Part shown: piece after piece, positions 9,721-54,638 of the stretch
Layout: each line of letters starts with the position of its first letter
How positions within the stretch are numbered: the stretch's first letter is position 1
Origin: Candidatus Latescibacterota bacterium
GTDB taxonomy: Bacteria; Latescibacterota; UBA2968
Direction of reading: 5' to 3'
Assembly: GCA_965208125.1 (NCBI GenBank)
Contig: OZ242320.1
Coordinates: forward strand, 1,856,001-1,920,000
Length of the DNA: 64,000 bases
The notes under the pieces: generated by a model
What the model saw: the letters and a program-made list of their open reading frames with translations, nothing else
What the model was told of the DNA's origin: nothing
Database searches by the model: none
Position numbers and translations under genes: made by a program

Positions 9721-9721
9721 T

Positions 9722-11937: not shown

Positions 11938-12009
11938 GCGTCAAAGTTTAAGTAGATTTGTGTTGCTTGTCGAAAGTGCTGAATAATTCCACCTTTTTTA
12001 TCTTTGTTC

Positions 12010-12196: not shown

Positions 12197-12251
12197 TGTC
12201 TAATCGCGTTTTGTAATGGATCATTTTGTAAGTAAGTGGAGAATTTTTAGT

Positions 12252-14371: not shown

Positions 14372-14384
14372 TGTGGAAAAATGC

Positions 14385-15090: not shown

Positions 15091-15219
15091 GATAGAGCAT
15101 TTCTGCCCATATAGATGTGCAGGGGTGGCATAACTTCGCCTGATTCGCTACATTTATTGCGTAGTAGCATTTTAAATACGCCATCTATTACTGGAGGGGA
15201 GGGATGGAGGAGAGGGATA

Positions 15220-15903: not shown

Positions 15904-16496
15904 CAGAAACGAGAATATTCACCGTGGGACACTCGACGCACGCGCTTGAGGATTTCGTCTCCCTCCTGAAACAACATGGCGTGGATGCCATTGCAGACGT
16001 AAGGTCAGTTCCATACAGCCGCTGGCAACCACAATTCAATCGCGAAGATCTGGCGGAGACCCTGAAAGCCCGGGGTATTGCCTATGTATTCCTCGGCGAG
16101 GAACTCGGCGCACGCAGTGACGACCCACAATGCTACGAGAACGGCCGGGTGCAGTATCGCGCGCTCGCCGAAACTCCTCTTTTTCAATCCGGAATAAAGC
16201 GTGTCTGGGACGGAAGCAGGCACAGGCGCATTGCCTTAATGTGTGCGGAAAAGGATCCCCTGGACTGCCATCGGACAATTCTAGTCGCTCGCGAATTGGT
16301 GGCAAGTGGAGTAGATGTCACACACATTCTTGAGGATGGATCACTGGAACCACACGACGAGACCCTGAAACGCCTCTCTGAGCAGTTGCGACTGCCAGCA
16401 CAGGATCTGTTTCTCACCGCTGATGAATTGGAGGACCGGGCATACGCGGCACAGGAACAGCGTATTGCGTATGTTGAGAAGGAGACTGCACAATGA
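15900..16496 (+). CDS. DUF488 domain protein
   Basis: IFTVGHS, DVRSVPYS, ELGAR, ALMCAEKDPLDCHR; ATGA overlap with the upstream gene. Confidence 0.9.
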   Translation: MTETRIFTVGHSTHALEDFVSLLKQHGVDAIADVRSVPYSRWQPQFNREDLAETLKARGIAYVFLGEELGARSDDPQCYENGRVQYRALAETPLFQSGIKRVWDGSRHRRIALMCAEKDPLDCHRTILVARELVASGVDVTHILEDGSLEPHDETLKRLSEQLRLPAQDLFLTADELEDRAYAAQEQRIAYVEKETAQ

Positions 16497-39068: not shown

Positions 39069-40150
39069 CCGACCTCCAAAAACGCATTCAAATCCTCCAA
39101 CCCCATCCCCTCAATCCCCAACTCGCGCACGCTGCGCCCTGAAGTCCATCCATCAAACCCCATCACCACAGACGCAATATCCACCAGCCCGCGCATCAAA
39201 GGCGCCTCCACCCCGTATTGCGCGCCCACATCGTGCCAGGCTGAAAGACCGTAGGGAATATCCTCCGTGAGCCATCGGCTCTCCAGCGACCCCGGCGCCT
39301 TGAGTTGCGTCAGCATCCGGCTGCCATTAATCGCCGCCCACAAATCGCCCTTCGGACCAAAACCCGCGCGATAAAACGCCTCATCAGCCGCCACCAGATC
39401 ATACCCCAAAGCCTTAGCAATCGCTCTGCGCTCTGCATCCACAGCCATAATCGTCTTCGCCACAGATGGGGAAACCCCCTCCTCGTAAAAATAGAACTCC
39501 CCGTGAGAATACTCAATCCGCCCCGCATTCATCAACACACCCGCGGGATGCACAACCGGATTCATCGCGGACAAACCGCACGCCATCGCCGTTGGATACG
39601 ACTGAATCCCCGGAAAAAAAGGCGATAAACGCTCGCGCACCCGCTCTGTATCACTCGCCGGCAAAACTCCCAACCCCAACCCCGTCACAGTACCCCAAAT
39701 CGTCGCTGTATCCGGCGCAGTCTTCCGACACACATAAGGCGCGGTATCCACCTCGGCAAGCGCGACACCTGCCACACCTCGTTCTCTCAGCAGCGTCGCC
39801 CACTCCAGCGTACCCAGCGTACCCGGCATCAGCACAACCGTATGCTCGGGTCCCAGATAGGGCGCACACGCCAGCGCAAAAGGCTTATGTGCATACGCCG
39901 GCACAATCACCAGAATCAGATCCGAAGCATTCAAAGCCGCCTCAATATCCGTGGTCAAAGTGTGAACCCTCGCCGCCCCCGTCTCCTCCACACCTACCAG
40001 ATGAATCACCCCACTATCGCGCACGGGATCGAGCATCTCCCCAAACTCCGGCAATTCGCAAAGCGTAACCCCAAACCCCTTCAAAGTCAGATTCGCAGCC
40101 GCAGCAAACGCCGTATTACCCCCACCCAAAATTGTAATATGTTCAGACAT
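39053..40150 (-). CDS. NAD/NADP opine (octopine/nopaline) dehydrogenase family protein
   Basis: ILGGGN, NPVVHP, FYFY.EG, DAER, RWLTEDIPYGL. Confidence 0.92.
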   Translation of the reverse strand: MSEHITILGGGNTAFAAAANLTLKGFGVTLCELPEFGEMLDPVRDSGVIHLVGVEETGAARVHTLTTDIEAALNASDLILVIVPAYAHKPFALACAPYLGPEHTVVLMPGTLGTLEWATLLRERGVAGVALAEVDTAPYVCRKTAPDTATIWGTVTGLGLGVLPASDTERVRERLSPFFPGIQSYPTAMACGLSAMNPVVHPAGVLMNAGRIEYSHGEFYFYEEGVSPSVAKTIMAVDAERRAIAKALGYDLVAADEAFYRAGFGPKGDLWAAINGSRMLTQLKAPGSLESRWLTEDIPYGLSAWHDVGAQYGVEAPLMRGLVDIASVVMGFDGWTSGRSVRELGIEGMGLEDLNAFLEVGYSTS

Positions 40151-40177
40151 GATAGAATCCTGTTAATATCGAATTGG

Positions 40178-40211
40178 ATTGTCATTGCGGCATGGTTTTA
40201 GCCGCAATCCA
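40178..40211 (+). repeat. Palindromic repeat, left boundary of DISARM-like island
   Basis: attgtcattgcggcatggttttagccgcaatcca; reverse complement matches 52269-52302 at 31 of 34 positions. Confidence 0.9.
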
Positions 40212-40274
40212 GCGGAATTAAAGAAAGAACGCAACCTTACACACTACTGGCGTTGTGCTATTTAAAGTCTCACA

Positions 40275-42143
40275 TTACTTAGCGTACTGTAAACTCTGAA
40301 GATAGTCGTTGAAGAAACCGAGTTCCGGTTTTTGTGGAGAACCCACAACCAGCACGCGATCCAGTAATCGGTTGCCTTCCTCACATGAGGTTTCAGGCAA
40401 GAGAGCACAGGCATGACAGGCAGCCAAATTGCACGAATCAGGACCCTGACCACTACTCTCTACACAGGTTGGATCGGACGAACACCAGAGCGCGGTCCGA
40501 AGAGCGCGGATTAAAACTCGTTCAAGCCTTCCTTGTTCACCTTGTCTTACAAGACCGCCCAATGTCCCTTCAGAGTCTCCAGATGCTGTGTAAATCAGTA
40601 CACCGCTCATCGGATAGGAACGATCTTCTTCATCACAGTAGATACGTTCACGAAGCGATGCACTACCATAGCCACACTCAAAACAAAGCTGATTGATCAA
40701 CAGATGCGCCATCGTGTGAATCAGGACGAATTTAGGGGAGAACGGCCTTTTGCTCTGGCCACGACCTTCTCGAACCCGGTTGTATTCATTCCGCAGTCTG
40801 TCGAATCGCTCAATAACATCAGGCTTCTGCTCCCAAGTCGCTAATCTTTTCTCATCCGGCTTGAGAAATATACCTTCGCCTCGAACTTTGATAGCGGGGA
40901 GCCAGTTTATTGTATTATCAAGGCGTAGATCTTCAATATATTCTTCGAATTTTCTCTTTTCATTAGGCAAATATCGTGAGAATCCGTAAAAGGCCCGCGT
41001 TTCCCGTAATTTGCGTACCAGCATGATATTCTCAAAATAGTCTTGAACAGGAGGACCATATTCAGCCCGATCTCTTGGGACAATGTAGAGCTCTGTTTGG
41101 TCAGCACCCCGAGCTGTTGTCATTGCCTCATATTCAGCTTGCCGATATTTTTCTTCTGTTTGCCCATCAGCCTTGGTAACCTGTTCCAAATCATCAAGGC
41201 GCCGTTGTGCCGCTTCACATAATTCCTCAGGATCAATGCCTTTGCATTTGGGATTGAACTCACAAATTCCTTTGCAGCGTTCCAGATCAATGCGACCATT
41301 AACCAGAGCACGTGAAAGGTTCTGCCATATATCGGTATCTTCCACAAGTTCAACAACCCCCCGGGATGTACTTTCTGCCCACAGTGGTAGATAAATCGAA
41401 CTTGCTACATGGGCGAAGTAAACGTTCGAAGCACCACGCTGTAATACTCGGAGACTGTTGCCGCACTTTGTTGACTTTGGCGTCATGTCACCAAGCCAGG
41501 GACGTAATCCTCCACAGGACACATTCACATTATCCAATGCCTCTTCACTAAAAGCACCGGCCATTGATCTATATTTACCACAGGAGCACTGGATAGTGAT
41601 TCCGGAGAGTCCTGCTGCACTTCTTCCTGCACGTAAGCGCAACTTGCAATCAGGCGCACAGTTATCGTTGCGATGGACCCACTCCATAAAAGGAAAATCC
41701 TGTATATGACCCTGATCACAAACCGCCATAAAACGAACAGGTACCAATCCTGGTCGTCTCCACTGATTGAGGGAAACGCAGTTAAGACCTTCAGCGTAGT
41801 TCGGAGCATTGCACTTCTGCGGACCACTAAAGGGAGAGAGTTCCTGCATGTTGCCGCATCGAGGACAATAATACCATTGAGGAAACCGGACAAAAGGAAT
41901 TTTCAGGTTCGGATGTTGCACTCCCGGTGCAGGTATTCGATAATCAGGTGGCAACCGAAAATGGTTGACTCGCAATCGTGCCTGAAGACGTTCCTCTTCA
42001 AATTTGAAATCTATCGGGCATTCTTCTTTTGCGAATGGCCAAGCATCAAGACCACAAACCATCAAAGATTCGTCACCGGGAAAGTCAATCATGCTACCAA
42101 TCCCCCAGGGGGAAATGAGTTGGGAGCGTCGTATCGGTTTCAT
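40275..42143 (-). CDS. drmB: DISARM DrmB (DUF1998) protein
   Basis: IRRSQLISPWGIG, RFMAVC..GHIQDFP, RGEGIF, HTMAHLL, GYGSASLRER, EGTLGGL, CSSDPTC, AACHAC, ETSCE. Confidence 0.93.
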   Translation of the reverse strand: MKPIRRSQLISPWGIGSMIDFPGDESLMVCGLDAWPFAKEECPIDFKFEEERLQARLRVNHFRLPPDYRIPAPGVQHPNLKIPFVRFPQWYYCPRCGNMQELSPFSGPQKCNAPNYAEGLNCVSLNQWRRPGLVPVRFMAVCDQGHIQDFPFMEWVHRNDNCAPDCKLRLRAGRSAAGLSGITIQCSCGKYRSMAGAFSEEALDNVNVSCGGLRPWLGDMTPKSTKCGNSLRVLQRGASNVYFAHVASSIYLPLWAESTSRGVVELVEDTDIWQNLSRALVNGRIDLERCKGICEFNPKCKGIDPEELCEAAQRRLDDLEQVTKADGQTEEKYRQAEYEAMTTARGADQTELYIVPRDRAEYGPPVQDYFENIMLVRKLRETRAFYGFSRYLPNEKRKFEEYIEDLRLDNTINWLPAIKVRGEGIFLKPDEKRLATWEQKPDVIERFDRLRNEYNRVREGRGQSKRPFSPKFVLIHTMAHLLINQLCFECGYGSASLRERIYCDEEDRSYPMSGVLIYTASGDSEGTLGGLVRQGEQGRLERVLIRALRTALWCSSDPTCVESSGQGPDSCNLAACHACALLPETSCEEGNRLLDRVLVVGSPQKPELGFFNDYLQSLQYAK

Positions 42144-42144
42144 A

Positions 42145-45100
42145 TTAATCTACCTCGTCAGGCTCAGGATATTGATGGATGGTTTCTGCTTCACAACTGG
42201 CATCTACATTCCGCATGGAAGATGGAGTAGGCCATGACCGTCTGACCCAGTCTTCCAACGGCTCAGACCCCGCTGGATACATAAGCGGTATATTGGACCC
42301 CGGTGGACCAAAACCGCCATATTCCGGGGGAAGAACACGCCTCCAATGATCAACCTGTTCATCAAAATACTTCAGAGTCAGATCTTGTTCACCAGAATCT
42401 ATGCCCTTAACCCGTTCCTCAATAACTGAACGGATATTCGCTATTAAGTCGGCATCGGGAAACGGTTGAGGACGCTCCCTATTATCAGAATGACCCCAGT
42501 ATCGGACGAGTGCGACCAGAAGAGCACGGAGCGCACGCTCTCTAACAGGAGCAGCAAACGGCGTCACACTCGTTGGTTCAACATGGCGATAAATACTCGC
42601 ATGAAATGACCGAAAGTGTTCATAATGTGACCGATCACGGGGTTTGCCCGTGTTGTAGATGGAAATAACCAGCCCAGGATGTCTGCGTCCTACCCGGCTG
42701 GTGGCCTGAATATATTCAGACGTGGTTTTGGGCTGTCCAACTACTGCCATTAGACCAAGGCGGGAAACGTCAATACCTACAGAGATCATATTGGTTGCGA
42801 GACAAATGTCCACAGGTTGATCCTGTGAAGAGTACTTGTGTTCCAGCTTCTGAAGTGATTCAGGAATATCAGTACTGGAAACACGGCTGGTTAATTCGAG
42901 TACCTGGTTAATAAACCTTCGTTCATCAAAAGTACTCGTCTTTTCAATCTTCTTGCGATTCCACATCGCATTCAGATATTCACGGATGTCAGCACGAATA
43001 AGTGTAGCCGCATGTCCAAGTTCGCGCAAACTATTGAAGTAATCAATCAAAGTCCAGTATGAATCTCGATCACTTTCATTGGATACCCGAGCCGAGCGCG
43101 TGGCCTGTAGCAGGGCTGCAATTACCCGCACTTGTGCCGTAACATGCGATGGCAACGCAGATGCATGAACACCAGCATACAATCTACCCGGCGAACAGTT
43201 GTCTTCCTCAGCAAAAAACGAATCACCGGCCTGCAAACACTGAGGGGGAAAAAGGAAAACGTTCCGGGCATACAGAGACTGAACCTGTTCTTCAGCACGA
43301 GAAATGGTTGCTGTCGATGCAATAATTTTTGGCCTGATTTTACGGTCTTCTTTTATATGTGAACAGAGTTCGTCAATGACCGTTTCATAATGACCCACCA
43401 TTGAACCCAATGGGCCGGAGATCAGATGCAACTCATCCTGAATAACCAGGTTTGGTGGCGAAACATTATCTCCGTCTCTAATACCAAAGAGTTTACGTGC
43501 ATCTGGAAACCAGGGCAATAGGGCAAATTTGTCAACGGTTCCAATAAGTAGCGTTGGTGGAGATTCATAGATTTCCTCGTCAATAACCTTCAATGGCAGT
43601 TCCCTACTAAAGTCACAGGCTGAATCATGACATCTAAATTTCACTGTTGATGGACGTAGCCTTTTTTCATACCCAAAAATCCTGACTCGATTCCCTGTAC
43701 TTACAGGTCCCATCTGAGCACTACACCAGGGACATTGAAGAACGATAAATGGATTTTCGCGTGTTTTGCCTTGACTGAGGCGAGTCAAGGCAGTGACTGC
43801 ATCACTCCGCTTATTGGGCGTGAGACTTCCTCCTACCCAAAGACCGATAGTGATAGGATCCGATCCAAGGTCCGGAGATCTACGTCTGATGATTTCACAG
43901 GCACAGATCAGCGATGCTGAACGCTGGAATTGTTGCGTTGTCAATAGCCGCAAAGTGTAGCGCATCAACACCGCTGTGCCCGCATCATCAAGATCAATAA
44001 GACGTCGAAAGAAAATGGTAAATGCGGTGAGTCCGAGATACGCTTCTGTTTTACCTCCACCTGTAGGAAACCAGATCAGATCTACAATATCGCGTTCATC
44101 ATCAAGTATCGCAATTGAACGAAGATTCATGAGAATAAACGCAATCTGAAAAGGATACCAAGAACCCAGACCACACCGTGGATTAGCCGGATCAGGCCAT
44201 GTTACAGGATCGATTTTCTTTTGACTTATATCTTTCCAAGTTCGCGGAGAAAGATCATAATGCAATTGCTGAAGCAACATCGCATGGTTGGCCAGCCGAA
44301 AAGCACGCATAACTATAGAATCGGTCTTAAGCAGATCCAGACCAGAGCGCATACGGCGTAAGCATTCCCGACACTTGTTAAGATGGCGCAATGCAGCCTT
44401 TTGAAATTCCTGTGGAAAGTCTGGACCATCCATAGTGACTTGTTGTTGCTCTATCCACTCTTCGTATTTATCGCATAGAGAATTAAGAACAGGATCTATA
44501 GCTGCTTCGTCGCCCAGTGTGCTCAGATCATACATTTTAAGATCAAGGTCTGGAAAACTTGTTGGAACAATAGGTTTGATCTCGTAGCTCGGAATAATAT
44601 CCGACTGAATCATATCAGCACGGTCTTCATCTACCTCGTTCCAATCGGCAGCACAACCATGCCCCACGGCATACGTCTTACGATGACGATACAGAAGCCT
44701 CAATGATTCCTCTTCCTTGTCCAGAGATTCGCCTTCTTTATCGGGATATTCAAGAAACGGAGCACTCTGGTCAGCAGCCCGCAACCTGAGTTCAACCTGA
44801 AAAAAGCATTTTTTGTTATCAGCCTGACCTGTCGTTGATTCGTGGCGGTTGATTAGCGCGACAGTCAAAAGTCGCCGGGATCTTCCATCCTCTCCTGGCT
44901 GCCGGGGCCTGCTGAGAATCCGAACTTGAAGATTTACGTCTTCACCTTTTTTATTTTTTACACTCCCGGGCCACATTTGAATGCCCTTGCCATCCAGCTC
45001 AGAAGAAGGAACTTCAAGGACACATTCAAGCGGTGTCCGAAGGTACTGGCGACCTTTTCTCGTTTCACCACTTTTCGTTATATATTCCCGGGGTTCTTCA

Positions 45101-45495
45101 TGATAGATTCCGGCTTTGACCTCAACGAGAAAACCCGCTTCTGGTAAGGTAGTCAGACAACTGAAACCGATTGCAGAAGGCAGATAAGAATTGGTCAACG
45201 AAGTAATTTCTTCAGCACTCTGGTCCTCAATGATTTCGCGTCCCCCACGGTCCTCCTTAACATCAATGTCCGTTTCTTCTGTTTCTATTTCTACTTCTAC
45301 TCCGGTCGTTTCTGCACTTTCTACATCCTCGGATTTTTCAGCAGACACACCCTGTGGGAAAAGCACACCTGCTCCATAACGTAGCCGGGGCGGATCGGTG
45401 ATAAGGATTTCTTCACCATTGTCCTGGACATCTGGCGGAATAGGATCTGGACCGATCAGTTCAGCACGCAAAAAATCTATAATCTGGTCTCTCAT
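42145..45495 (-). CDS. drmA: DISARM DrmA SF2 helicase
   Basis: YAVGHGC, WFPTGGGKTEAY, RYTLRLLT.QQ, TVDKFA, QDELH, LATNMISVGID, YIQATSRVGR, SVTPF. Confidence 0.93.
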   Translation of the reverse strand: MRDQIIDFLRAELIGPDPIPPDVQDNGEEILITDPPRLRYGAGVLFPQGVSAEKSEDVESAETTGVEVEIETEETDIDVKEDRGGREIIEDQSAEEITSLTNSYLPSAIGFSCLTTLPEAGFLVEVKAGIYHEEPREYITKSGETRKGRQYLRTPLECVLEVPSSELDGKGIQMWPGSVKNKKGEDVNLQVRILSRPRQPGEDGRSRRLLTVALINRHESTTGQADNKKCFFQVELRLRAADQSAPFLEYPDKEGESLDKEEESLRLLYRHRKTYAVGHGCAADWNEVDEDRADMIQSDIIPSYEIKPIVPTSFPDLDLKMYDLSTLGDEAAIDPVLNSLCDKYEEWIEQQQVTMDGPDFPQEFQKAALRHLNKCRECLRRMRSGLDLLKTDSIVMRAFRLANHAMLLQQLHYDLSPRTWKDISQKKIDPVTWPDPANPRCGLGSWYPFQIAFILMNLRSIAILDDERDIVDLIWFPTGGGKTEAYLGLTAFTIFFRRLIDLDDAGTAVLMRYTLRLLTTQQFQRSASLICACEIIRRRSPDLGSDPITIGLWVGGSLTPNKRSDAVTALTRLSQGKTRENPFIVLQCPWCSAQMGPVSTGNRVRIFGYEKRLRPSTVKFRCHDSACDFSRELPLKVIDEEIYESPPTLLIGTVDKFALLPWFPDARKLFGIRDGDNVSPPNLVIQDELHLISGPLGSMVGHYETVIDELCSHIKEDRKIRPKIIASTATISRAEEQVQSLYARNVFLFPPQCLQAGDSFFAEEDNCSPGRLYAGVHASALPSHVTAQVRVIAALLQATRSARVSNESDRDSYWTLIDYFNSLRELGHAATLIRADIREYLNAMWNRKKIEKTSTFDERRFINQVLELTSRVSSTDIPESLQKLEHKYSSQDQPVDICLATNMISVGIDVSRLGLMAVVGQPKTTSEYIQATSRVGRRHPGLVISIYNTGKPRDRSHYEHFRSFHASIYRHVEPTSVTPFAAPVRERALRALLVALVRYWGHSDNRERPQPFPDADLIANIRSVIEERVKGIDSGEQDLTLKYFDEQVDHWRRVLPPEYGGFGPPGSNIPLMYPAGSEPLEDWVRRSWPTPSSMRNVDASCEAETIHQYPEPDEVD

Positions 45496-47273
45496 TCTGT
45501 TCCTTTCTGAATGCTCCTGCGAATCGCTTCCTGGTACTCTCCTCGCGCAGAATCAGAGATCAAAACTGATAACCTGTATTTAGCGCGAGACATTCCCACA
45601 TACAGCAGTGCCCGGTTACGGTCATTGAGCACCTGTTTAATATCAGTAATAATAATAACAGAACTCTCAAGTCCCTTGAATGAGTGAATTGTTGAAAATC
45701 TGATAACATTCCGAAGTCGTTTCTGTAACCCTGATCTGGTAAGGTCTGCTATTTTGAAAGATATATGATCGCCTGCTGCAAGACATGAGTGCTCAAATGT
45801 CGCTGGGGATAGAATGGTTATGGTCTCGCTTTTGATACCATCAGCACGAAGTTGGTTGATAATTTCGTCTATCTGTTTACATTGATCAGCGTCATCACTG
45901 TAGAATCTGTAATCTACAGGCATCCCTTCTATACTGGCAGGTAAAAACGGCGGTATGTCAAATCCCGAAATGAACGAGACTTCTTCCCCTATTGGACGTG
46001 TGTTTCGACAATTGGTAAGCAGACGAAATCGTGTATATTGAGCCGTGCGCTGTCCAAGCTCACAAAGCATTGTATTTTCATCGGTATCTCCGTAGATCGT
46101 CTGGTGATGGAAGTCGCAGAAAATTGCCCATGTGCCACCGGCAAGCCCCCCTTTGAGTAGCCCATCAAAAACATCCAGATATTCGGAACGAATAAGATCC
46201 TGACCTTCATCAATGATAAGCGTATCATACGATTCAGTCACATTTTCTGATAGGGCATCAAGCGCAAATAGCGGATATAGTTCGCCAAAAAGATAATTTT
46301 GATCTTCTGTTTGTTTTATTTTGCGAAACTCATTGCTAACACTTGAAGCAGCAATTAAGCGATCAAGAAAATGGTGGAAAGAGTCAATTTCAATGGAGTG
46401 GGGAAGTGTGTTCCCTTTCTCTAAAGCAAGCCATTGTCCTAACAACTTATTAAAACAAATTAGCAAGACTTTTCTACCTGAAGATGCTTCACGGCGGGCA
46501 AATTCAAGAGCAAGTAGCGTTTTTCCAGTCCCGGCACCACCATCGAACAAACATCGCGGATTATCCTGAAGCTGATCAAGGCAGCGATATTGCTCCTCAG
46601 TCAGCCGCAGGATCTGTTCCTCTGTCTCAATTAACACATCAGAAGGTTTGACGATTTGCTCAAAATTACCTCGCAGAAAATCCACAAGTTCCCGGATGTC
46701 TGACAGCGAAGGACGAGATCCCTGTTCATCATACCAGGGCTGGGATTGCACATTGCGACGGGTATTTATGGAAAGATTGAGAATATATCTGCTTACTGGT
46801 TGGCGGCGAGAATCCCTGTCATAGACCTGCCAGGATTCAATCTCTGGATCATCTTGAGCAAAGGAGATATGTGGGAACACGAGACCAAAACCATACAGGA
46901 GTCTGGTAAAACGATGTTGCCGACCAAAGTGTTTTCGAACAGCCTCAAGCAGGGAAAACATGCCATCCCTGGCCTGCCTGAATGGACCAACAGTGCTCGT
47001 TGACACGTCGCCGTATTTGTTGGTATAATTCCAGACGCCTTCTTGACGAGCGACCCTGCCGGATTTGATTTCCAGACAGAAAATTCCTTCATTTGGAATG
47101 AGTACCACAAAGTCAATCTCGCCATAGACTCGCTTCACATGCCTTGCAAGACTGAGAGAATGCAGGCAAACCCAATCAGCCGTTGCAGGATCATGTCGCA
47201 ATAGATCAAAGAACTGCTTCTCCCCGGTGCTTTTGATCTCTTCTGGATAATAGGGGGGGATCATTCGAGCCAT
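45492..47273 (-). CDS. NERD nuclease fused to SF1 (UvrD-like) helicase
   Basis: GEIDFVV..LEIKSG nuclease motif; GGAGTGKT, DEGQD, NCRNT, STIHSFKGLE, YVGMSRA. Confidence 0.9.
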   Translation of the reverse strand: MARMIPPYYPEEIKSTGEKQFFDLLRHDPATADWVCLHSLSLARHVKRVYGEIDFVVLIPNEGIFCLEIKSGRVARQEGVWNYTNKYGDVSTSTVGPFRQARDGMFSLLEAVRKHFGRQHRFTRLLYGFGLVFPHISFAQDDPEIESWQVYDRDSRRQPVSRYILNLSINTRRNVQSQPWYDEQGSRPSLSDIRELVDFLRGNFEQIVKPSDVLIETEEQILRLTEEQYRCLDQLQDNPRCLFDGGAGTGKTLLALEFARREASSGRKVLLICFNKLLGQWLALEKGNTLPHSIEIDSFHHFLDRLIAASSVSNEFRKIKQTEDQNYLFGELYPLFALDALSENVTESYDTLIIDEGQDLIRSEYLDVFDGLLKGGLAGGTWAIFCDFHHQTIYGDTDENTMLCELGQRTAQYTRFRLLTNCRNTRPIGEEVSFISGFDIPPFLPASIEGMPVDYRFYSDDADQCKQIDEIINQLRADGIKSETITILSPATFEHSCLAAGDHISFKIADLTRSGLQKRLRNVIRFSTIHSFKGLESSVIIITDIKQVLNDRNRALLYVGMSRAKYRLSVLISDSARGEYQEAIRRSIQKGTE

Positions 47274-49939
47274 TAGAACTCATCCCTGAACAGACGATTG
47301 ACTTCAGTAAGAGGAACCTTTATCTCCTCCTCGTCAATATCTTCAACACAGACTACGAAAGCCTGCCCGATATCTTCAATTTCAATAGTGTGAGATTCGA
47401 CAAGACCTTGCTTTAACAGTGAAGGAACTTGGGCGATGAGCTTTTGAGCAAGAAAATTGGCTGCCTGGAGATGGGCACCACGAACTTCCTTGATTGCTCG
47501 TCGAACATAGTCAAGTTGTTCCTGAAGTTCTTGATCGCCGCTCACGCGAGCAATAATTTCGATGTCCTGCTCATTGCGAGGACCGATGCGGTGTTCGTCA
47601 TTCAGCCAACTTCGGATAGTAATTTCAGTGGGTTTAAGCCCCTCATCCCATAACTCTATCAAAGCTCCGTCAAAACCATCCGAATGCTCACATACGAATC
47701 GCCTGAGTGCTTGCTTCCATAAACCGGCTACCTCTCGATGCTCATTTTTACCTGCCCCAGCAAGCCCTATGTCCGCAATAGCCCGTAAAAGATCACTGTC
47801 CGAACCCTCCCGGAAAATTACATAATCACCGACTTTTAATTGAGAGACGTCCTTGGAAGGAATACCTGCTGATTCGTCAGCATGACCATCAATAAAATCG
47901 GTAACCACAGACACTTTATAATTTGGGCGCAAGTAGGCATACATGTCTTGGGAAAAATCTACAAAACGTGCCTTTGTCGTAGTCTCACCTGGAGCAGACG
48001 GTCTGGCATAGAGGTCACGCCTATAAGTGCGCAGACGAAGTTCAAAATCAACTATGTCAAAATCTGTTTCAGGAGATGGATCAGGCGGTTTTTCCTCTTT
48101 AAACTTTCGTATATCCGAAAGATTTTCTGGTTGTGTCTGAAGAATCTTTGCTTTCTGGGGTTGAGTAAGTTCGGCTTTCCTTAGCTTTTCCTTTTGTCTG
48201 CGCCATCTACTTACTGCCGAGCGGAACCATTCCTGTTCAAAAGGATACATAAGGACTGTGATAGACGGAGCAATACAGTAATCAAACAACTTTCTCATCC
48301 GTTCTGTCCCGAGCCATCCACACACGATGAGATCGTCATAACCCTGCTCAAAGTCAAGTTCAGATGGAGTAACAAAGTGAATACCTTTTTGTTTCCTTCT
48401 GGAAACAATGTCCTCCCAATATCTCTTCGTAATTGACACCTCAGAGGCATCCGCGAGAACAATAGCACTTTGATTTTTTTCAGTCTTATTCTGAAGTATC
48501 TTTTCAAGTTCTGTTATTTTGCCTGAAATACTATTCGGATTTTCTATAAGAGTCTTGATTTTATTTACAAATTCATGGGCTGTATCTACAGCATCTTTTT
48601 CCAACCATATCGCCTTATTTTTAACGTCCAACTGTATTTGTTCAATAAGATTTTCCAGAGCCTTATCCCTGACAACATCATCCTCAACGCCAAACGGACG
48701 CAGTAATCGAGAAAGATTGAGCAGGCAATAGTAAAATCTGCGTTCAATACTTCTGTGTTCGAGATTATCTGAATGACACTGGTTTGAGAATATCTGTAAC
48801 TTCTCTGCTGCAATATCCAACTCTGAGCGTTCACATATCGTTTCCTCAATTTGCCGGACATTGTAATTCTGGACTGTGCGACGAAAATGACGGAAAGGTA
48901 TCTGTTGATTGGATACATCAATGCTTTCGGCAAGCGCAAACTGTTGCAGGTCGTGCTCTGACCAGACCCAGGTCTCAAACCCTCGATCCTCAAGATATTT
49001 GAGATGGTCTATATGCCGATTTTCCATCAGAGCAAGAACGGGATATCCTTCATCAACGATTTCATCAAGTGCCTGAAGATCATTGGCAAATGGAAGATTA
49101 CCGTCAAGAATGATCAGCACATCTGATGATTGACGGTTGGAAAGGTATTCCCAAAGCGTGGTGAGATTGGGAGCAACTCCAATGACAGGTTCTGCGGCGA
49201 TTTGTTGATGCCTCCACCGTTTAAGTTCACCTTCTACCGTAATGCTACCCCACTGGAATAAATCGCGCAATGAAACTGAGTCCTCTGGAGATGCAGGATT
49301 GACGATGCGGGTTTTTTCAGCAAATTGGCGCACTCTTGTCAACCGGGAGACGAGGACTACTTCGTTAGTAAAAATAGAGCGGTTGCCAAAAGAGGGTATG
49401 CCAAGAAGCTTATCAAGAGGATGGACAGGTGGTTGGAAATGCATCTTTTCTATTGGCGTCAATGGCATTTTAGTATCTGTTGCTTGAAAACGCAACCGGT
49501 CACCAATAGGAAATGCCTTGGTAGTATTTTCAGGTCTTTGACCTGCTTTGCCTTTTGCGCTCATCTTCATCCATAAGAACTGGGTTCCATCAAACTTCTC
49601 CTCCTTTATGTATTCTACAACATGTTTATCGTCTAACCGCAATTTTTGACCTGGCGAAAGAGGTTCCAAATTTTCTATAGCATGCCAGAAAGTTTTTTTG
49701 ATAGCTGCAAGTGAGCAGCCCACAGCGATCCACTCTGGACAGTCGAGCAGGAGAGGGAAAATCATTGTCAGACGTTTATACTCCGGGTCTTCACACCGCA
49801 GATTCTCTGCAATATCAAAACCGGCTTGCAGGGCTTCAGGTAGTAGTGATGAGAAGTCCTCCGATCCACAGACCTCAAGTTGCCTGAGAAATGGATGTCG
49901 CTTTTTGATATTCTGTAAGATATTCGTCCAACCAGACAC
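47273..49939 (-). CDS. drmE: DrmE-like large protein
   Basis: ~888 aa, no intact NTPase motif, C-terminal LKVGDYVIF...WKQAL...IRSWL region recalled from DrmE; position upstream of drmA; GTG start 2 nt after the upstream stop with G-rich RBS. Confidence 0.65.
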   Translation of the reverse strand: MSGWTNILQNIKKRHPFLRQLEVCGSEDFSSLLPEALQAGFDIAENLRCEDPEYKRLTMIFPLLLDCPEWIAVGCSLAAIKKTFWHAIENLEPLSPGQKLRLDDKHVVEYIKEEKFDGTQFLWMKMSAKGKAGQRPENTTKAFPIGDRLRFQATDTKMPLTPIEKMHFQPPVHPLDKLLGIPSFGNRSIFTNEVVLVSRLTRVRQFAEKTRIVNPASPEDSVSLRDLFQWGSITVEGELKRWRHQQIAAEPVIGVAPNLTTLWEYLSNRQSSDVLIILDGNLPFANDLQALDEIVDEGYPVLALMENRHIDHLKYLEDRGFETWVWSEHDLQQFALAESIDVSNQQIPFRHFRRTVQNYNVRQIEETICERSELDIAAEKLQIFSNQCHSDNLEHRSIERRFYYCLLNLSRLLRPFGVEDDVVRDKALENLIEQIQLDVKNKAIWLEKDAVDTAHEFVNKIKTLIENPNSISGKITELEKILQNKTEKNQSAIVLADASEVSITKRYWEDIVSRRKQKGIHFVTPSELDFEQGYDDLIVCGWLGTERMRKLFDYCIAPSITVLMYPFEQEWFRSAVSRWRRQKEKLRKAELTQPQKAKILQTQPENLSDIRKFKEEKPPDPSPETDFDIVDFELRLRTYRRDLYARPSAPGETTTKARFVDFSQDMYAYLRPNYKVSVVTDFIDGHADESAGIPSKDVSQLKVGDYVIFREGSDSDLLRAIADIGLAGAGKNEHREVAGLWKQALRRFVCEHSDGFDGALIELWDEGLKPTEITIRSWLNDEHRIGPRNEQDIEIIARVSGDQELQEQLDYVRRAIKEVRGAHLQAANFLAQKLIAQVPSLLKQGLVESHTIEIEDIGQAFVVCVEDIDEEEIKVPLTEVNRLFRDEF

Positions 49940-49941
49940 AA

Positions 49942-50607
49942 TTACCCCCCCAATATGCTTCTGCCATAGCAACAGTGCTGCTTTACTGAACACTCATTAC
50001 ATAGAGGATTGCGGCTACGACAGATAAGCGCTCCGTGGTCAAGGAGCGCAAAATTAAATTTACGTGGATGTTTAGTATCAACAAGGATCTCTAACAGGTT
50101 ACGGAATTTTTTGCTACGTCTGGATCCATCAGTCACAGGGATATCCAGAAGCCTCCCGCATATCCTGACTGTATTGGTGTCCAGCAGGGCATCGGGATAC
50201 CCATAAGCAAAACACCGAATTGCTGTTGCGATATAATGGCTGACCCCAGGCAGTGATTCCAGATCTTCACGCTCAGTAGGAATTTGATCCCCAAATCTTG
50301 AATGTAACTCCTGAGCCATGTTATAGAGTAACTCTACGCGCCAGTGCAACCCCAATGGGTAAATCAAAGTTTTAAGTTCTTCGATAGATGCCTTGGCCAG
50401 TTGACTGACGGATGGATACTTTGCTAAAAATTTCTGATACGTCGGCACGACTTGATCAGCACGAGTTCTATGGAGAAGCACTTCAGCAATGGCAATCGCA
50501 TACGGGTCTCGTGTTTCTCGCCAGGGATAATTCCGCTTATTTTTGTTCCACCAGGCAAGCAAATCCTTGCGAAAGGTTTTCAAATCGAAATTGTCGGGAA
50601 AATTCAT
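49942..50607 (-). CDS. HhH-GPD DNA glycosylase with 4Fe-4S motif, MIG (T:G mismatch)-like
   Basis: YPWR, AEVLLHRT, HhH LPGVSHY (Tyr at the MIG position), DTN, C-x6-C-x2-C-x5-C; lacks the MutY C-terminal domain. Confidence 0.85.
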   Translation of the reverse strand: MNFPDNFDLKTFRKDLLAWWNKNKRNYPWRETRDPYAIAIAEVLLHRTRADQVVPTYQKFLAKYPSVSQLAKASIEELKTLIYPLGLHWRVELLYNMAQELHSRFGDQIPTEREDLESLPGVSHYIATAIRCFAYGYPDALLDTNTVRICGRLLDIPVTDGSRRSKKFRNLLEILVDTKHPRKFNFALLDHGALICRSRNPLCNECSVKQHCCYGRSILGG

Positions 50608-50608
50608 C

Positions 50609-52219
50609 TCACGGAATCACACCTTTCCGCTTCAGTACATCGTGGACGATATCTGCAATCTGTCTGGCCAAAAGAGGTGGCACAGCATTACCAACCTGAA
50701 CGTATTGCGATGTACGTGGACCGCAAAAAAAATAATTATCCGGGAAGGTTTGAAGTCTTGCTGCCTCCCGGACAGTGAGGCTACGGCACTGCGTCGGATC
50801 GTGATGGATATAGTAATGCCCGTCTTTCGATATATGTGAAGTGACTGTAGTGGCAAGTCTATCGCCAATCTGCACCCGAAATCGATCACTAAAAAGAGGT
50901 TTCCCATTGGCAGCGCGTTTTGCGTTCTTGTGGGCAGGCAAAAGATCGGTGGGAAAATTTTCTAATTTTGGAGATTGCCTCTCAATCTCTGCGAAGCAAG
51001 CAGCATAGAAATAGCGATATAGATCACTCACCATATGCCCGCGCGTGGTGTGGTTGCACACGCCTTCGATACGAGAATCGAGAAACCACTCGGGTTCATA
51101 GTCGATAGCCGTATCACAAGAGATGAACTCACCACCGCGATCAAGGTCAACACTATGGCGAATTTCTTTTAATGCAGTATCCAATTTTTCATGAATTTTG
51201 CCATTCCCTTCTGTTTGCGGCGAAACAAACCAGGGATACTCAGCCATTTTATACAGCCACTTGCGCCAGGCGTCAGCACTATCTTTTTCTCGGGATAATC
51301 CGCTTCTTAATTCGGGTAATCCGGACAATACCTTGCCCGCGGCAACAGTACTCTGTGGTTTAAGAGTCTTTGGCTTAATATCATTAATATCAATAATATC
51401 TTCCCGGATTCCGAGGATAATAACACGATGACGTGCCTGGGGAATACCAAAATATTCCATATGAACTACAAAATCAGAAAGGTTTAAATTACTGACTTCA
51501 CCGGGTTTAATCAACGAGTATAATTTGTATCGACACGGCTTGCGGACCTGCTCAGATATCTGAACCGGACGGTCCTCACGTTTCAGGGCTTCTTCTGGTT
51601 CCTGAAGATCCTTATACATACGTTTGAAGATGTACTGGTTCTTTAAGGTAGCGGACAATAATCCTTTGACGTTTTCCATCACAAAGATAGCTGGTTGGTA
51701 TTCCGCAATGATTTGTAAGTATTCTAAATATAAATATTGTCGGTGATCTTTTTCTGCCTGATAATCAGAGTTCCCACGATTACGAGATCTACCGACAACA
51801 GAGTATGCCTGACAGGGAGGCCCACCGATCAACACCCACTCACAATCCTCTAAAGCATCCTGAATCCATTTATGAATTGTATGAGGATCATCTTTTCCCA
51901 ACTCGGCAAGACGTGCTTCTTGTTGAACTTGTTTATATTTTTCGGGGTACCGACTAAACAGCTTATTTCGTCGCTCATTTTCTCGAATACCAGCCTGGCG
52001 CAGATAATTATAGTAGGCATCCGGGACCTTGTCATGGGGAAACTGGCGAAAGAAGCTACGCAACTGAAGTGTCTGGTGAGCCACAGGATCTTTTTCTATA
52101 GAGAGTTTGATCTGAAAAGGATGCTCACCAGAATATTTATAAGCAGAAAACCCCTCGCCCAGTCCGCCTGGCCCAGCAAATAAGTCAATAACAGGAATTT
52201 TAGTAGTATTTCCCGGCAA
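50609..52219 (-). CDS. DNA (cytosine-5) methyltransferase (DrmMII-position)
   Basis: DLFAGPGG, GGPPCQ, ENV, QARHR, RSLTVREAARLQTFPD, GNAVPP. Confidence 0.96.
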   Translation of the reverse strand: MPGNTTKIPVIDLFAGPGGLGEGFSAYKYSGEHPFQIKLSIEKDPVAHQTLQLRSFFRQFPHDKVPDAYYNYLRQAGIRENERRNKLFSRYPEKYKQVQQEARLAELGKDDPHTIHKWIQDALEDCEWVLIGGPPCQAYSVVGRSRNRGNSDYQAEKDHRQYLYLEYLQIIAEYQPAIFVMENVKGLLSATLKNQYIFKRMYKDLQEPEEALKREDRPVQISEQVRKPCRYKLYSLIKPGEVSNLNLSDFVVHMEYFGIPQARHRVIILGIREDIIDINDIKPKTLKPQSTVAAGKVLSGLPELRSGLSREKDSADAWRKWLYKMAEYPWFVSPQTEGNGKIHEKLDTALKEIRHSVDLDRGGEFISCDTAIDYEPEWFLDSRIEGVCNHTTRGHMVSDLYRYFYAACFAEIERQSPKLENFPTDLLPAHKNAKRAANGKPLFSDRFRVQIGDRLATTVTSHISKDGHYYIHHDPTQCRSLTVREAARLQTFPDNYFFCGPRTSQYVQVGNAVPPLLARQIADIVHDVLKRKGVIP

Positions 52220-52268
52220 GATTTACCTTTCGTTGGAAGGAGAAGTCGCGTTTAGACAGCGTCCCCTA

Positions 52269-52302
52269 TGGATTGCGGCTAACACCAGGCCGCAATGACG
52301 AT
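52269..52302 (-). repeat. Palindromic repeat, right boundary of DISARM-like island
   Basis: tggattgcggctaacaccaggccgcaatgacgat; same family as 17011-17042. Confidence 0.9.
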
Positions 52303-52312
52303 TGCAGAGAAC

Positions 52313-52882
52313 CTACCATCTCAAATCAGCAATCCGAAGCTCAAACCCGGGCAATTGATCAGAATTATAAACATCCCCCTCCTGCAATTCCCGAGACAGA
52401 TAATCGCGCTCGCCACGCGAAAGAACTGTAACAACCCGTCGAAAAGGATCGACAATCACATATTCTGCCACACCTGTATCAAAATATTCTCCACGCTTCA
52501 AAATATAATCTCGCTCTTCGCTCCCCTGGCTCACAACCTCAAAAACGAGATCGGGAACCAGATCGTAAATATGTTCAGCAGACACATCCTCCAAATACAC
52601 GGCAATATCACCGACCCGGTCCGTCTGATCCGAAGTCCGGATCCAGCCCTCGGGCGCAATGAGTTCAATCGCTCCCAAATGGGTATGTCTATACACATAG
52701 AGCTTTTCGAGAATAGCGGAAACGACCTGCATATGCGGCAAATCGCTCGGCTCCATCACAACCAATCGCTCTTCCACGCGCTCATACCGATACGGCGCAT
52801 CCCACTCCGCCTGGGCAAACTCCTCATCCGTCATCAATCGCCCCTGATCTTTCAAACCCAATTTCAAGTGTGTTTTTGTCAT
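52313..52882 (-). CDS. Uma2 family endonuclease-like protein
   Basis: RYERVE..LVVM.P...H, PDLVFEVVS, DYILKR.EY, EYVIVDP, LPGF. Confidence 0.9.
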   Translation of the reverse strand: MTKTHLKLGLKDQGRLMTDEEFAQAEWDAPYRYERVEERLVVMEPSDLPHMQVVSAILEKLYVYRHTHLGAIELIAPEGWIRTSDQTDRVGDIAVYLEDVSAEHIYDLVPDLVFEVVSQGSEERDYILKRGEYFDTGVAEYVIVDPFRRVVTVLSRGERDYLSRELQEGDVYNSDQLPGFELRIADLRW

Positions 52883-52887
52883 AATAC

Positions 52888-53463
52888 TCACCATCCCAAA
52901 TTGGCAATCGAAAACTCAAACCCGGGCAATTGATCAGAAGTATAAACATCGCCCTCCTGCAATTCCCGAGCCAAATAATCGTGCTCACCGCGCGAAAGAA
53001 CTGTAACCACCTTTCGAAAGGGATCGACAATCACGTACTCTGCCACACCTGTATCAAAATATTCTCCACGCTTCAAAATATAATCTCGCTCTTCACTCCC
53101 TCTGCTTACAACCTCGAAAACAACGCGGGGAATCCTCTCGGACTGTTGATCGGACTGCGGCTCATCTTCCGTGAGATAAACGCCGACATCCGCCATGCGG
53201 TCCTGTCCTTCCCCCGTGCGAATCCACGCCTCTGTCGCTGCCATTTCAATTATTCCCGGATGGGCTGCATCGTAAAGAGAGAGCTCTTTCACAACAGCCC
53301 ATACCAACCCCAAATGCGTCTTACCACTTGGCGACATAACCACAAGCCTCCCTTCCACGCGTTCATATCGATAGGGCGCATCGCACTCTGCCCGAGCAAA
53401 CTCCTCATCCGTCAGCAACCGCCCCTGATCTTTCAAACCCAATCTCAATTTTGTCTCCAGCAT
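52888..53463 (-). CDS. Uma2 family endonuclease-like protein (tandem paralogue)
   Basis: Same motifs; 3' third nearly identical in DNA to the downstream copy. Confidence 0.9.
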   Translation of the reverse strand: MLETKLRLGLKDQGRLLTDEEFARAECDAPYRYERVEGRLVVMSPSGKTHLGLVWAVVKELSLYDAAHPGIIEMAATEAWIRTGEGQDRMADVGVYLTEDEPQSDQQSERIPRVVFEVVSRGSEERDYILKRGEYFDTGVAEYVIVDPFRKVVTVLSRGEHDYLARELQEGDVYTSDQLPGFEFSIANLGW

Positions 53464-53477
53464 GGCCTGACCTCCGT

Positions 53478-54638
53478 TCACGACTCATCTCTCATCGCCC
53501 ACTGTTGCTTCTTCTCCCTCATCTCCGCATTCAATTCCACCTCGCGATGCGGCGTCTGATTCGCGCTATCCTGAACCCACTCACCCTCGCGCGACTTCTC
53601 CACCGGCTGTCGCTGTGCCACATCTATAATCCCAAATGGGCGATGCGGCTCTTTTTGATACCAGTAAGCCACAGACGCCATCTCATTCGCCAGATGATTC
53701 CCGTGCCCGTGCTCAATCGTCACCTTAATCTCCTTTTCAAACCGCACGGGATTGGTCAAATGAAAAACATAAGACGTCTGATACCCCCCCGTATTCCGCT
53801 CGTAAATCGACGACCCATTCATCAAAAACGCATTATCCTGCATCCCCCACGCCTGATTGAGATAATCTTCGCTACCTGTACCGTGCAACTCCGGCGGCCA
53901 CTTGTACCCATCTACCCAGATCATATCATCGCCCTCGCCCCACCACGTCCCCTGAAAATTCGTCACCGACAAATTGCACCCAATATAATGCCCGACACCC
54001 GTCGCCTCCAGAATCGCGTAATTGCCATCCCACGCCTGCCGCTCAACATTGACAATATTCGCCTCTGGCGTATTGACGCGAATTTCATGCCCCCAGCCAT
54101 CGCAGGGATTTTCCCTGTGAAATTGCGCGTGAAAATACGCCGTATCTTCTCCCCAGGGATCGTCGTACAACTCGTAATCCACATAAAAATACTGCCGATA
54201 AGACTCATCGCCCTCATTCGTCACCTCAACGCGCGCAGAAAGATTAAACGGCATCAGCAAATAGCAATTCAGCGCGGCATTGGGCACAAACTGATTCTCG
54301 CGCTGTGCATTGGCAGACGCGGAAAAAGGCAGCGATTGAAAAGACGTGGAAATACCGTGCCCCAAACAAAAGAAATCTCCCAACGGCACCTCGACACTCG
54401 GATCGTCTTCACCATCCCAAAACATCTTCAAAACCACATTGCGAAAAGCACCCTCCCCGCTTTGCGTCATCCAAATATGCGTAATACACCCCGGTCCCTT
54501 GAGATCGGCCAACACGCGCGTCTCGCCGCCCTCAATAACCCATGCATCGCCATTGCGTCCACTGTTATCCCACGACGACGCCCGCAGCGTCCTCGCCTTT
54601 TTGGTCTGTGTAAGTGAAGCGAGCAAATGAGCGTCCAT
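53478..54638 (-). CDS. DUF2961 / GH172 family glycoside hydrolase
   Basis: SSWD.SG.NGD, GPGCITHIWMT, PLGDFF, WWGEGDD, GTGSEDY, IEHGH; start at MDAHLL. Confidence 0.93.
   Translation of the reverse strand: MDAHLLASLTQTKKARTLRASSWDNSGRNGDAWVIEGGETRVLADLKGPGCITHIWMTQSGEGAFRNVVLKMFWDGEDDPSVEVPLGDFFCLGHGISTSFQSLPFSASANAQRENQFVPNAALNCYLLMPFNLSARVEVTNEGDESYRQYFYVDYELYDDPWGEDTAYFHAQFHRENPCDGWGHEIRVNTPEANIVNVERQAWDGNYAILEATGVGHYIGCNLSVTNFQGTWWGEGDDMIWVDGYKWPPELHGTGSEDYLNQAWGMQDNAFLMNGSSIYERNTGGYQTSYVFHLTNPVRFEKEIKVTIEHGHGNHLANEMASVAYWYQKEPHRPFGIIDVAQRQPVEKSREGEWVQDSANQTPHREVELNAEMREKKQQWAMRDES

Follow-up and report, generated by a model that had tools for sequence, protein, structure and literature searches.

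A DrmC-less, class 2-type DISARM operon carrying a NERD-SF1 helicase in a Latescibacterota genome

The locus described here is an operon of six tightly packed minus-strand genes at positions 40275-52219 of a 64,000-nucleotide stretch of DNA from a Candidatus Latescibacterota bacterium (assembly GCA_965208125.1, contig OZ242320.1, positions 1,856,001 to 1,920,000), which is referred to below as the window and is numbered from its first letter. According to the list of open reading frames (ORFs) and profile searches, the operon encodes in order the C5 cytosine DNA methyltransferase DrmMII, a DNA glycosylase, a DrmE-family protein, a NERD nuclease joined to a superfamily 1 (SF1) helicase (hereafter NERD-helicase), the superfamily 2 (SF2) helicase DrmA and its zinc-binding partner DrmB (Table 1). 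Class 2 of the phage defence system DISARM is made up of drmE, drmA, drmB, drmC and drmMII in the accessible text of Aparicio-Maldonado et al. (10.1101/2021.12.28.474362). Comparison of sequences from related loci gives good support to a coherent DrmC-less DISARM subtype with a NERD-SF1 helicase in the nuclease slot.

Gene content of the operon

The published DISARM core consists of drmA, drmB and drmC. In the window, DrmA carries PF00271 (6.9e-7), the domain by which core drmA is recognized, and DrmB carries the PF09369 domain that defines drmB and is encoded directly beside drmA. The methyltransferase contains the pfam00145 domain that marks the drmMII gene of class 2, and it scores 135.8 bits against TIGR00675 (cut-off 100.65). 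No counterpart was found for the third core gene, drmC, which encodes a phospholipase D (PLD) domain (pfam13091): a DrmC tblastn query gave no match in the 64 kb, the flanking ORFs encode no PLD domain, and the four PF13091 matches in the whole genome all lie at least 0.87 Mb from the operon. Judged by the published core, the locus falls short in drmC and is therefore DISARM-like, not canonical DISARM; loci without DrmC are in themselves already known to be common. An initial annotation, made from the letters of the DNA alone, had described six co-oriented genes that are separated by gaps of 2 bp or less, or overlap, with no HKD phospholipase D gene among them. All six family calls hold, no PLD gene was detected in the window by either domain scan or DrmC tblastn, and the junctions, measured with a revised DrmE start and given in operon order, are gaps of 1 nt (drmMII/glycosylase) and 2 nt (glycosylase/drmE), overlaps of 1 nt (drmE/NERD-helicase) and 4 nt (NERD-helicase/drmA) and a gap of 1 nt between drmA and drmB.

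In the NERD-helicase the NERD nuclease is N-terminal and the SF1 helicase C-terminal, an arrangement shared with RTasNERD-Hel (the partner protein of a defence-associated reverse transcriptase, DRT, system), C3a187 and Nhi. Nuclease residues D54, E68 and K70, the Walker A motif GxGKT (248-252), the Walker B motif DExQD (355-359) and the later helicase motifs are invariant in 19 sequences, down to 31% identity, and the NERD D...ExK motif is intact in eight aligned loci, one of which (L061, below) carries the domain fused to DrmA. Among the PADLOC models, the protein matches RTasNERD-Hel over its full length (8.1e-44) and C3a187 'NERD+UvrD' (3.3e-21). The Nhi model matches only residues 224-287 of 593 (6.5e-10) and thus falls short of a full-length Nhi call; the Nhi and AbiO models both cover only ~60 residues around the P-loop. 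In contrast to these stand-alone NERD-helicases, the copy in the window is partnered with DrmAB, and DrmAB-linked copies form their own group.

By sequence, no close solved relative of the NERD-helicase was found, a profile search of PDB sequences returning weak helicase-motif matches only. An AlphaFold2 model (predicted local distance difference test score, pLDDT, 81; predicted template modelling score, pTM, 0.61) had human SLFN11/14 as its best Foldseek matches, followed by UvrD, Upf1, HelD and RecD2. The likeness to Schlafen 11/14, in which an N-terminal nuclease module is likewise joined by a linker to an SF1 helicase, extends over ~630 columns and is one of structure only: sequence identity is 13-15%, the TM-score is ~0.4, and the nuclease core of the Schlafens is not known to be a NERD domain. 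Prediction of a complex between full-length DrmB and residues 1-215 of the NERD-helicase gave a score of 0.00 in a run without controls, which is evidence neither way.

The DrmE gene was listed as ORF 47273-49993, and alignment of homologues together with the sequence places its real start at the GTG at 49939, 2 nt after the glycosylase stop codon. The product scores 36.7 bits against the DISARM_DrmE equivalog model NF038323, below the cut-off of 250, and contains DrmE_C (PF24957; 31.3 against a cut-off of 27, 2.1e-7). The 43 DrmE homologue clusters are 58-88% identical, apart from one at 26%; profile scans identified six loci in species genomes and one in metagenomes. The AlphaFold2 model of DrmE is poor (pLDDT 60, pTM 0.38), and a Foldseek search with this low-confidence model returned weak matches to SF2 helicase cores (RIG-I/LGP2/MDA5, Hef, Snf2; TM-scores 0.2-0.3). 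DrmE may accordingly possess a degenerate two-RecA-domain core, which we regard as a lead rather than a finding.

Table 1. Features of the operon and its borders, in window coordinates
Feature	Position	Strand	Supporting matches
DrmMII, C5 cytosine DNA methyltransferase	50609..52219	-	PADLOC DrmMII PDLC02649 6.4e-94; Pfam PF00145 DNA_methylase 2e-45
MIG/MutY-like HhH-GPD DNA glycosylase, 221 aa	49942..50607	-	Pfam HhH-GPD and HHH; PADLOC REase_II 'type II nicking endonuclease' 3.6e-42, full length
DrmE-family protein, 888 aa	47273..49939	-	NCBIfam DrmE_fam NF038316 334.6 bits (cut-off 80)
NERD (PD-(D/E)xK) nuclease and SF1 helicase, 593 aa	45492..47273	-	Pfam NERD PF08378 4.7e-10; UvrD_C_2 3.6e-8; ResIII
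DrmA, YprA-family SF2 helicase, short form	42145..45495	-	NCBIfam DISARM_DrmAS NF038325 989.7 bits (cut-off 950); PADLOC DrmA 8.7e-229
DrmB, DUF1998/MZB zinc-binding DrmA partner	40275..42143	-	DrmB_fam NF038324 484.3 bits (cut-off 240); PADLOC DrmB 1.3e-75; Pfam MZB PF09369 2.4e-8
REP-like hairpin, one arm of a 34-nt inverted repeat	40178..40211	.	just past the DrmB stop codon; repeat pair 91% complementary
Second REP-like hairpin	52269..52302	.	50 nt upstream of the DrmMII start

Linkage of the NERD-helicase to DrmA and DrmB

Genes for NERD-helicases accompany drmA and drmB at considerable evolutionary distance from the window. In the same phylum, locus L019 (DrmA 41-45% identical) encodes DrmE, NERD-helicase, DrmA and DrmB, and in the same genus L036 (DrmA 35-39% identical) encodes DrmMII, a UvrD-like protein, DrmA, DrmB and NERD-helicase; the 1099-amino acid protein of L036 is not DrmE-like by hhalign. 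The IMG/VR locus L043 comprises genes for a UvrD-like protein, DrmA, DrmB, NERD-helicase, a C5 methyltransferase and Vsr. Rhodococcus opacus pROB02 carries a 507-amino acid protein that matches the C-terminal region of DrmE (hhalign 4.6e-5) together with NERD, DrmA and DrmB, Deinococcus gobiensis P4 carries NERD-helicase, DrmA and DrmB, and in Brevibacillus nitrificans the NERD (EDM59_15280) and DrmA (EDM59_15285) genes have adjacent locus tags. The lineage of the window's DrmA takes in Latescibacterota, Poribacteria, Actinomycetota and Deinococcota and, judged by the source names of linked database proteins, Brevibacillus (Bacillota), Pirellulales (Planctomycetota) and Desulfobacterales. A conserved NERD-drmA-drmB linkage lacking drmC, as sought on the strength of the initial annotation, recurs across phyla; DrmE is not always part of it.

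The position of the NERD-helicase gene relative to drmA and drmB is not fixed. In L036 and L043 it directly follows drmB, the position that drmC holds in L050 (a Planktothrix plasmid) and in eight DrmC loci. In L061 (G145:C8, 7269-15741), DrmA is encoded in a single ORF of 1829 amino acids that also carries a NERD domain at residues 15-83 (4.4e-10) and a Ser/Thr protein kinase domain at residues 463-671; DrmB and then a separate SF1 helicase of 391 amino acids follow. A kinase inside a DISARM helicase is unusual. Additional SF1 helicases occur elsewhere in the lineage, UvrD-like in L036 and L043 and HelD-like in L047.

A search of a protein database gave 5098 NERD-helicase matches among 8000 scored candidates and 7862 for DrmA, of which the best 120 of each were listed. 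Among these listed matches, at least 33 of the 88 for DrmA with less than 70% identity share the exact size of the longest contig with a listed NERD-helicase match (~0.3 expected by chance), and the pairs so matched carry the source names Pirellulales and Desulfobacterales. Pairwise distances of NERD-helicase and DrmA were then compared for 48 linked pairs, nine from loci and 39 from contig matches, with L004 (frameshifted) and one fragmentary pair left out and L019 represented by its helicase ORF only. The two sets of distances correlate at r=0.97, a value reached by 0 of 2000 permutations, and at r=0.93 for the 33 distant pairs.

Across 53 NERD-helicases, the tree separates the DrmAB-linked copies from four chromosomal paralogues (25-29% identity) encoded beside TPR genes, at a branch with 100% support in the Shimodaira-Hasegawa-like approximate likelihood ratio test (SH-aLRT). 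The DrmAB side of this branch also takes in L044, a long-branch copy from an IMG/VR viral contig whose available DNA shows no Drm gene. In the contexts inspected, the copies outside DrmAB loci are these four paralogues, L044 and a decayed orphan, L041. The latter (G063:C794, 1457-2869) is 62% identical, has an internal stop and a missing segment, and is found on a 17.7-kb contig without any Drm gene, where its neighbours are genes for an IetA-like AAA ATPase and an integrase core.

NERD-helicase and DrmC were not found together. When 168 genomes from the phylum were searched with DrmA at E values of up to 1e-30, this census returned 20 places in 19 of them. Eight of them have NERD, as a gene, a broken gene, a remnant or a fusion (G000, G047, G089, the first locus of G107, G008, G090, G077 and G145), and eight have DrmA, DrmB and DrmC (L057-L060, L062-L064 and L066; the PLD domain was confirmed by PF13091 and PF00614). 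Four have neither or are cut short (L017; L065 and L055, at a contig end; L056, a decayed remnant), and none of the 20 has both. A DrmC tblastn query gave no match in any of 11 NERD loci inspected by sequence, and the same query matched eight of eight DrmC-type loci. A DrmA tree with 34 rows, built without the experimentally studied Bacillus class 2 prototype, places the DrmC-linked sequences in one clade (support 92) and 16 NERD-linked sequences plus two remnant loci in a separate clade (98% SH-aLRT). L036 and L043 are unresolved at the base; in the best tree all 20 NERD-linked rows lie on one side of a branch with a weak support of 68. The distinct subtype proposed in the initial annotation is thus borne out by the NERD-linked DrmA clade, by the lack of any NERD and DrmC pairing among the 20 places, and by the co-divergence with DrmA.

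The four places with neither gene or cut short include two of separate interest. L056 (G083:C1, 5754-9354), from the same genus as the window, retains only the C-terminal half of DrmA (92% identical) and DrmB, with no DrmE, NERD-helicase or methyltransferase within 20 kb. Another DrmC-less variant is seen in L017 (G082, 6216-16114) and L018 (G079, 5837-13891), where a protein with GNAT and ABC-ATPase domains is followed by DrmE and DrmA. L017 adds DrmB and L018 ends within DrmA; the GNAT/ABC-ATPase protein of L018 has an added ASCH domain. Neither has an adjacent methyltransferase, and L017 has a type I restriction-modification (RM) specificity gene upstream.

Close relatives, methylation genes and surroundings

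The closest set comprises eight loci including the window, which were compared by tblastn and blastn; the relatives come from Latescibacterota, Poribacteria and 'Gemmatimonadota', the last of which falls in the window's own order. L006 and L007 have all six genes, as does L004, where the DrmE gene is interrupted by that of a DDE transposase and the NERD-helicase gene carries a frameshift. L008 has DrmE, NERD-helicase, DrmA and DrmB, with no methyltransferase or glycosylase in the 7.2 kb upstream. L005 has the methyltransferase, DrmE and DrmA (inside which its contig ends) and is without glycosylase and NERD-helicase. L002 and L003 occupy the same chromosomal site as the window, with the same downstream octopine dehydrogenase; the glycosylase is missing exactly, and a clean deletion of 1586 bp from the start codon of the NERD-helicase gene has spared only its final 196 bp, which precede an intact DrmA. 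The gene is therefore intact in four of the eight loci, frameshifted in one, a 196-bp remnant in two and absent from one. The remnants show that it was ancestral and then lost, and the NERD-helicase is dispensable for retention of the operon. The initial annotation had held that sporadic occurrence of NERD in homologous loci would count against it; this was found in part, among the nearest relatives. No PLD gene follows DrmB in any of the seven close loci that reach that far.

Further differences among these loci concern their surroundings. A co-oriented gene pair directly upstream of DrmMII in L002 (5079-8323), L003 (5086-8330) and L006 (4447-7676) is absent from the window. One gene encodes a protein of 695-697 amino acids with two GHKL ATPase domains and the other a protein of 384-415 amino acids, of which the 384-amino acid copy of L002 weakly matches a response-regulator receiver and the 415-amino acid copy of L006 has no family match. 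L005 and L007 come from one metagenome-assembled genome of Poribacteria, which thus has two copies of the operon family, one with glycosylase and NERD-helicase and one without either.

Orthologues of the methyltransferase head L002-L007 (65-75% identical). DrmMII of L036 (G089:C1, 17858-19456) is 85% identical to that of the window, though DrmA is only 35-39% identical, and on this comparison the methyltransferase module appears to have been exchanged between DrmAB systems of one genus.

The glycosylase aligns over its full length to the MutY catalytic domain (PDB 6q0c, 6.6e-41) and to MIG, the T:G glycosylase of M. thermoautotrophicum (1KEA, labelled 'possible G-T mismatch repair enzyme', also 221 amino acids, 9e-40). 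It retains the catalytic Asp and a C-terminal cluster of four Cys, and is without the MutY C-terminal domain. Like MIG it is a single-domain protein of the HhH-GPD/MutY type, and here its gene directly follows that of the C5 methyltransferase. In other loci Vsr takes the same place, directly after the C5 methyltransferase in L043 and near the methyltransferase in L046. Because of this position and this replacement, the glycosylase is likely a repair partner of DrmMII that would act on T:G mismatches arising from deamination of 5-methylcytosine (5mC); in the window's operon family its gene is optional. It is present in four of the eight closest loci, window included. The initial annotation was thus right in calling a MIG glycosylase, and went too far in making it a defining part of the variant. 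A role as a restriction glycosylase was considered and dropped, since the relevant review (PMC10273834) concerns the unrelated PabI fold and the protein here is MutY/MIG-like.

The glycosylase could also be grouped with the NERD-helicase as a DNA-repair pair for methylation damage that has no part in defence. Both genes occur together in four loci (the window, L004, L006 and L007) and are missing together from three (L002, L003 and L005), and the glycosylase is of a repair type. However, L008 has the NERD-helicase and, in the available DNA, neither glycosylase nor methyltransferase; the distant NERD loci L019, L036, L043, L046 and L047 are without a glycosylase of the window's type; and the NERD-helicase tracks DrmA rather than the methyltransferase, as L036 illustrates. 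We regard such a repair pair as highly improbable.

The operon is bordered on one side by genes for octopine dehydrogenase, an FGE-sulfatase and two M16 peptidases, and on the other by two Uma2 genes, DUF2961 and ribonucleotide reductase. Its G+C content is 43-48%, that of the flanks 50-55%. The first M16 peptidase gene (35298-36808) is split into two ORFs of 258 and 209 amino acids, and its L002 counterpart is a single ORF of 504 amino acids; a frameshift or pseudogene is possible. Just upstream of the operon, the Uma2-family genes (52313-53481) are tandem paralogues encoding putative restriction endonucleases, between which DNA repeats of 243 nt (88% identical) and 182 nt (76% identical) are found.

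The 34-nt inverted repeat around the operon was examined as the possible ends of a mobile element. This was rejected, because the motif belongs to a family like the repetitive extragenic palindromic (REP) elements that is dispersed genome-wide and is not specific to the cassette: 39 copies with up to two mismatches are present in the genome, against 0 for a control. A scan of 39900-52600 for promoters and terminators gave about as many sites as chance would produce, 21 being promoter-like (19.1 expected) and 12 terminator-like (10.3 expected). Metatranscriptome contigs from three libraries of two studies match parts of all six genes at 90-99% identity and bridge four of the five junctions (methyltransferase/glycosylase, DrmE/NERD-helicase, NERD-helicase/DrmA and DrmA/DrmB). 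These contigs from RNA libraries are a weak sign of operon expression, as a contig does not in itself demonstrate a transcript and carry-over DNA could account for them. This reading leaves aside the stretches of the operon that no such contig matches and a single low-support joint (48569 to 51654, 22 letters on the shorter side).

Place of the NERD-helicase in the system

We favour, with a probability of roughly 0.6, the reading that the locus is a horizontally acquired DrmC-less class 2-type DISARM operon in which the NERD-SF1 helicase is an integral, co-evolving component in the nuclease slot of DrmC. Judged from sequence comparison, the NERD-helicase is not a chance insertion or a sporadic passenger, because it recurs at a distance, diverges together with DrmA, excludes DrmC and is in one case fused to DrmA.

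Several observations weigh against this reading. The NERD-helicase is lost or broken in half of the closest loci, and in three of those four DrmE, DrmA and DrmB are intact; L002 and L003 in particular keep all three at full length despite the deletion. Thus, the rest of the system can persist without it, as the losses in L002, L003 and L005 imply. The NERD-helicase gene of L019 lies in three reading frames. Of 86 plasmid records in which a DrmA homologue was identified, only two gave a NERD-helicase match as well (tblastn of plasmids with the NERD-helicase gave five records only, and the viral-contig scan three loci), and the plasmid DrmAs of L048 and L049 lie inside the NERD-type clade with no NERD-helicase adjacent. 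The co-divergence measures stable co-inheritance; since related loci are not independent, it is not a probability, nor does it amount to functional dependence. Stand-alone nuclease-helicase defence genes have the same domain architecture, and the best PADLOC model is the partner of a reverse-transcriptase system. Finally, embedded genes are common in DISARM operons and are often independent systems, according to the accessible part of the preprint of Payne et al. (10.1101/2024.01.29.577857).

Much of this would fit a NERD-helicase that is an independent, single-gene, Nhi-like defence, working without DrmAB and embedded in the operon for co-regulation or co-transfer. A nuclease and a helicase could suffice alone, the RTasNERD-Hel and C3a187 models tie the family to other systems, and the orphan L041 lies apart from any Drm gene. 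The same part of the preprint describes embedded defence genes as frequent in DISARM, BREX and type I RM operons, 96.7% of them co-oriented, and the NERD-helicase resembles the genes embedded in DISARM in being a co-oriented extra gene nested between core genes. It differs from them, however, in that the copies linked to DrmAB group together and diverge in step with DrmA down to ~30% identity across phyla, in that the link to DrmAB is kept while the position shifts from before DrmA to after DrmB, in that NERD and DrmC occur together in none of 20 census loci and none of 11 inspected NERD loci, and in the fusion of L061. An independent defence gene is consequently an unlikely explanation in our assessment.

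The NERD-helicase could instead act upstream of DrmAB or beside it, either by resecting or unwinding DNA ends into single-stranded overhangs for DrmAB to load on or as the second motor of a bipolar SF1 and SF2 machine, with blocking performed by DrmAB or DrmE. In the accessible text of PMC9142583, unmethylated 5' single-stranded overhangs activate class 1 DrmAB, which may block replication without a nuclease. An enhancer role would suit L002, L003 and L005, which have lost the NERD-helicase and kept the rest intact, and further SF1 helicases accompany L036, L043, L047 and L061. However, that the gene excludes DrmC and takes its slot argues for the same, itself presumptive, role as DrmC, and we consider an upstream or parallel function rather improbable.

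In the reading that we favour, with the NERD-helicase as an integral component in the place of DrmC, DrmMII would methylate host cytosines and the MIG-like glycosylase would repair the T:G mismatches produced by 5mC deamination. DrmA and DrmB, with DrmE, would engage invading DNA that is without the mark, by analogy to the class 1 DrmAB structure, and the NERD-SF1 helicase would translocate on this unmarked DNA and cut it. We infer the contact with DrmAB, the order of action and the capacity of NERD cleavage to stop phage; the NERD-helicase would then be an effector activated by DrmAB, as the initial annotation had proposed. Class 2 systems depend on each of drmA, drmB and drmE, and losing drmMII is deleterious, as stated in the accessible text of 10.1101/2021.12.28.474362. 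The frequency with which the NERD-helicase, like DrmC, is lost suggests that it is an enhancer, strengthening the system rather than being strictly needed. We hold only tentatively, at somewhat less than even odds, the broader proposal that NERD-bearing, DrmC-less operons constitute a third coherent DISARM class over many phyla. The NERD-helicase would be its executioner, docking on DrmAB or receiving DNA from it, in a two-motor (SF2 and SF1) nuclease machine with a logic like that of RecBCD/AddAB.

With class 2 DISARM, the operon shares the C5 methyltransferase DrmMII, a DrmE-family protein, a short DrmA, DrmB and a tight co-oriented arrangement. It differs from class 2 in that the PLD protein DrmC is absent, a NERD-SF1 helicase gene lies between drmE and drmA, a MIG-like glycosylase gene follows the methyltransferase gene, the latter comes first and not last, and DrmE passes only the subfamily model NF038316. 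Class 1 DISARM (drmD, drmMI, drmA, drmB and drmC), as in L050 and in the Serratia system of the accessible text of PMC9142583, has in common with it the DrmA-DrmB helicase/DUF1998 core and, by analogy, a presumed sensing of unmethylated DNA ends. Unlike class 1, the window has no SNF2 DrmD, no PglX-type adenine methyltransferase and no DrmC, and its DrmA belongs to a separate clade. TALON, as set out in the accessible part of Bell et al. (2025 preprint, PMC12458937), likewise pairs a YprA-family helicase with a PD-(D/E)xK nuclease of the NERD subtype. In contrast to the operon described here, TALON has an ARMADA-like unsplit YprA helicase together with TPR-CSD and TBP proteins and is without DrmB, DrmE and a methyltransferase, and the NERD domain is not described in that part as fused to an SF1 helicase. 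The accessible portions of this preprint and its supplements label DISARM relatives as 'DISARM-like helicase' only, with no mention of NERD there.

Within the searchable literature, no published description of a DrmAB system with a NERD-helicase was found, and the architecture does not there appear as an already named subtype; the original DISARM paper and the supplements to the preprint on embedded genes lay outside this search and might list it.

These results bear on how DISARM stops phage, as they make the NERD-helicase a concrete and testable candidate for the effector step, with TALON as a precedent for a NERD nuclease serving a YprA-type helicase. With L002, L003 and L005, natural 'knock-out' alleles are available for comparison. 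A rule for DrmA and DrmB with a NERD-helicase, in which DrmE and DrmMII are optional, could be added to defence-system finders. Were the NERD-bearing operons indeed a third class with the NERD-helicase as its executioner, this would answer, for that class, how DISARM destroys DNA without DrmC.

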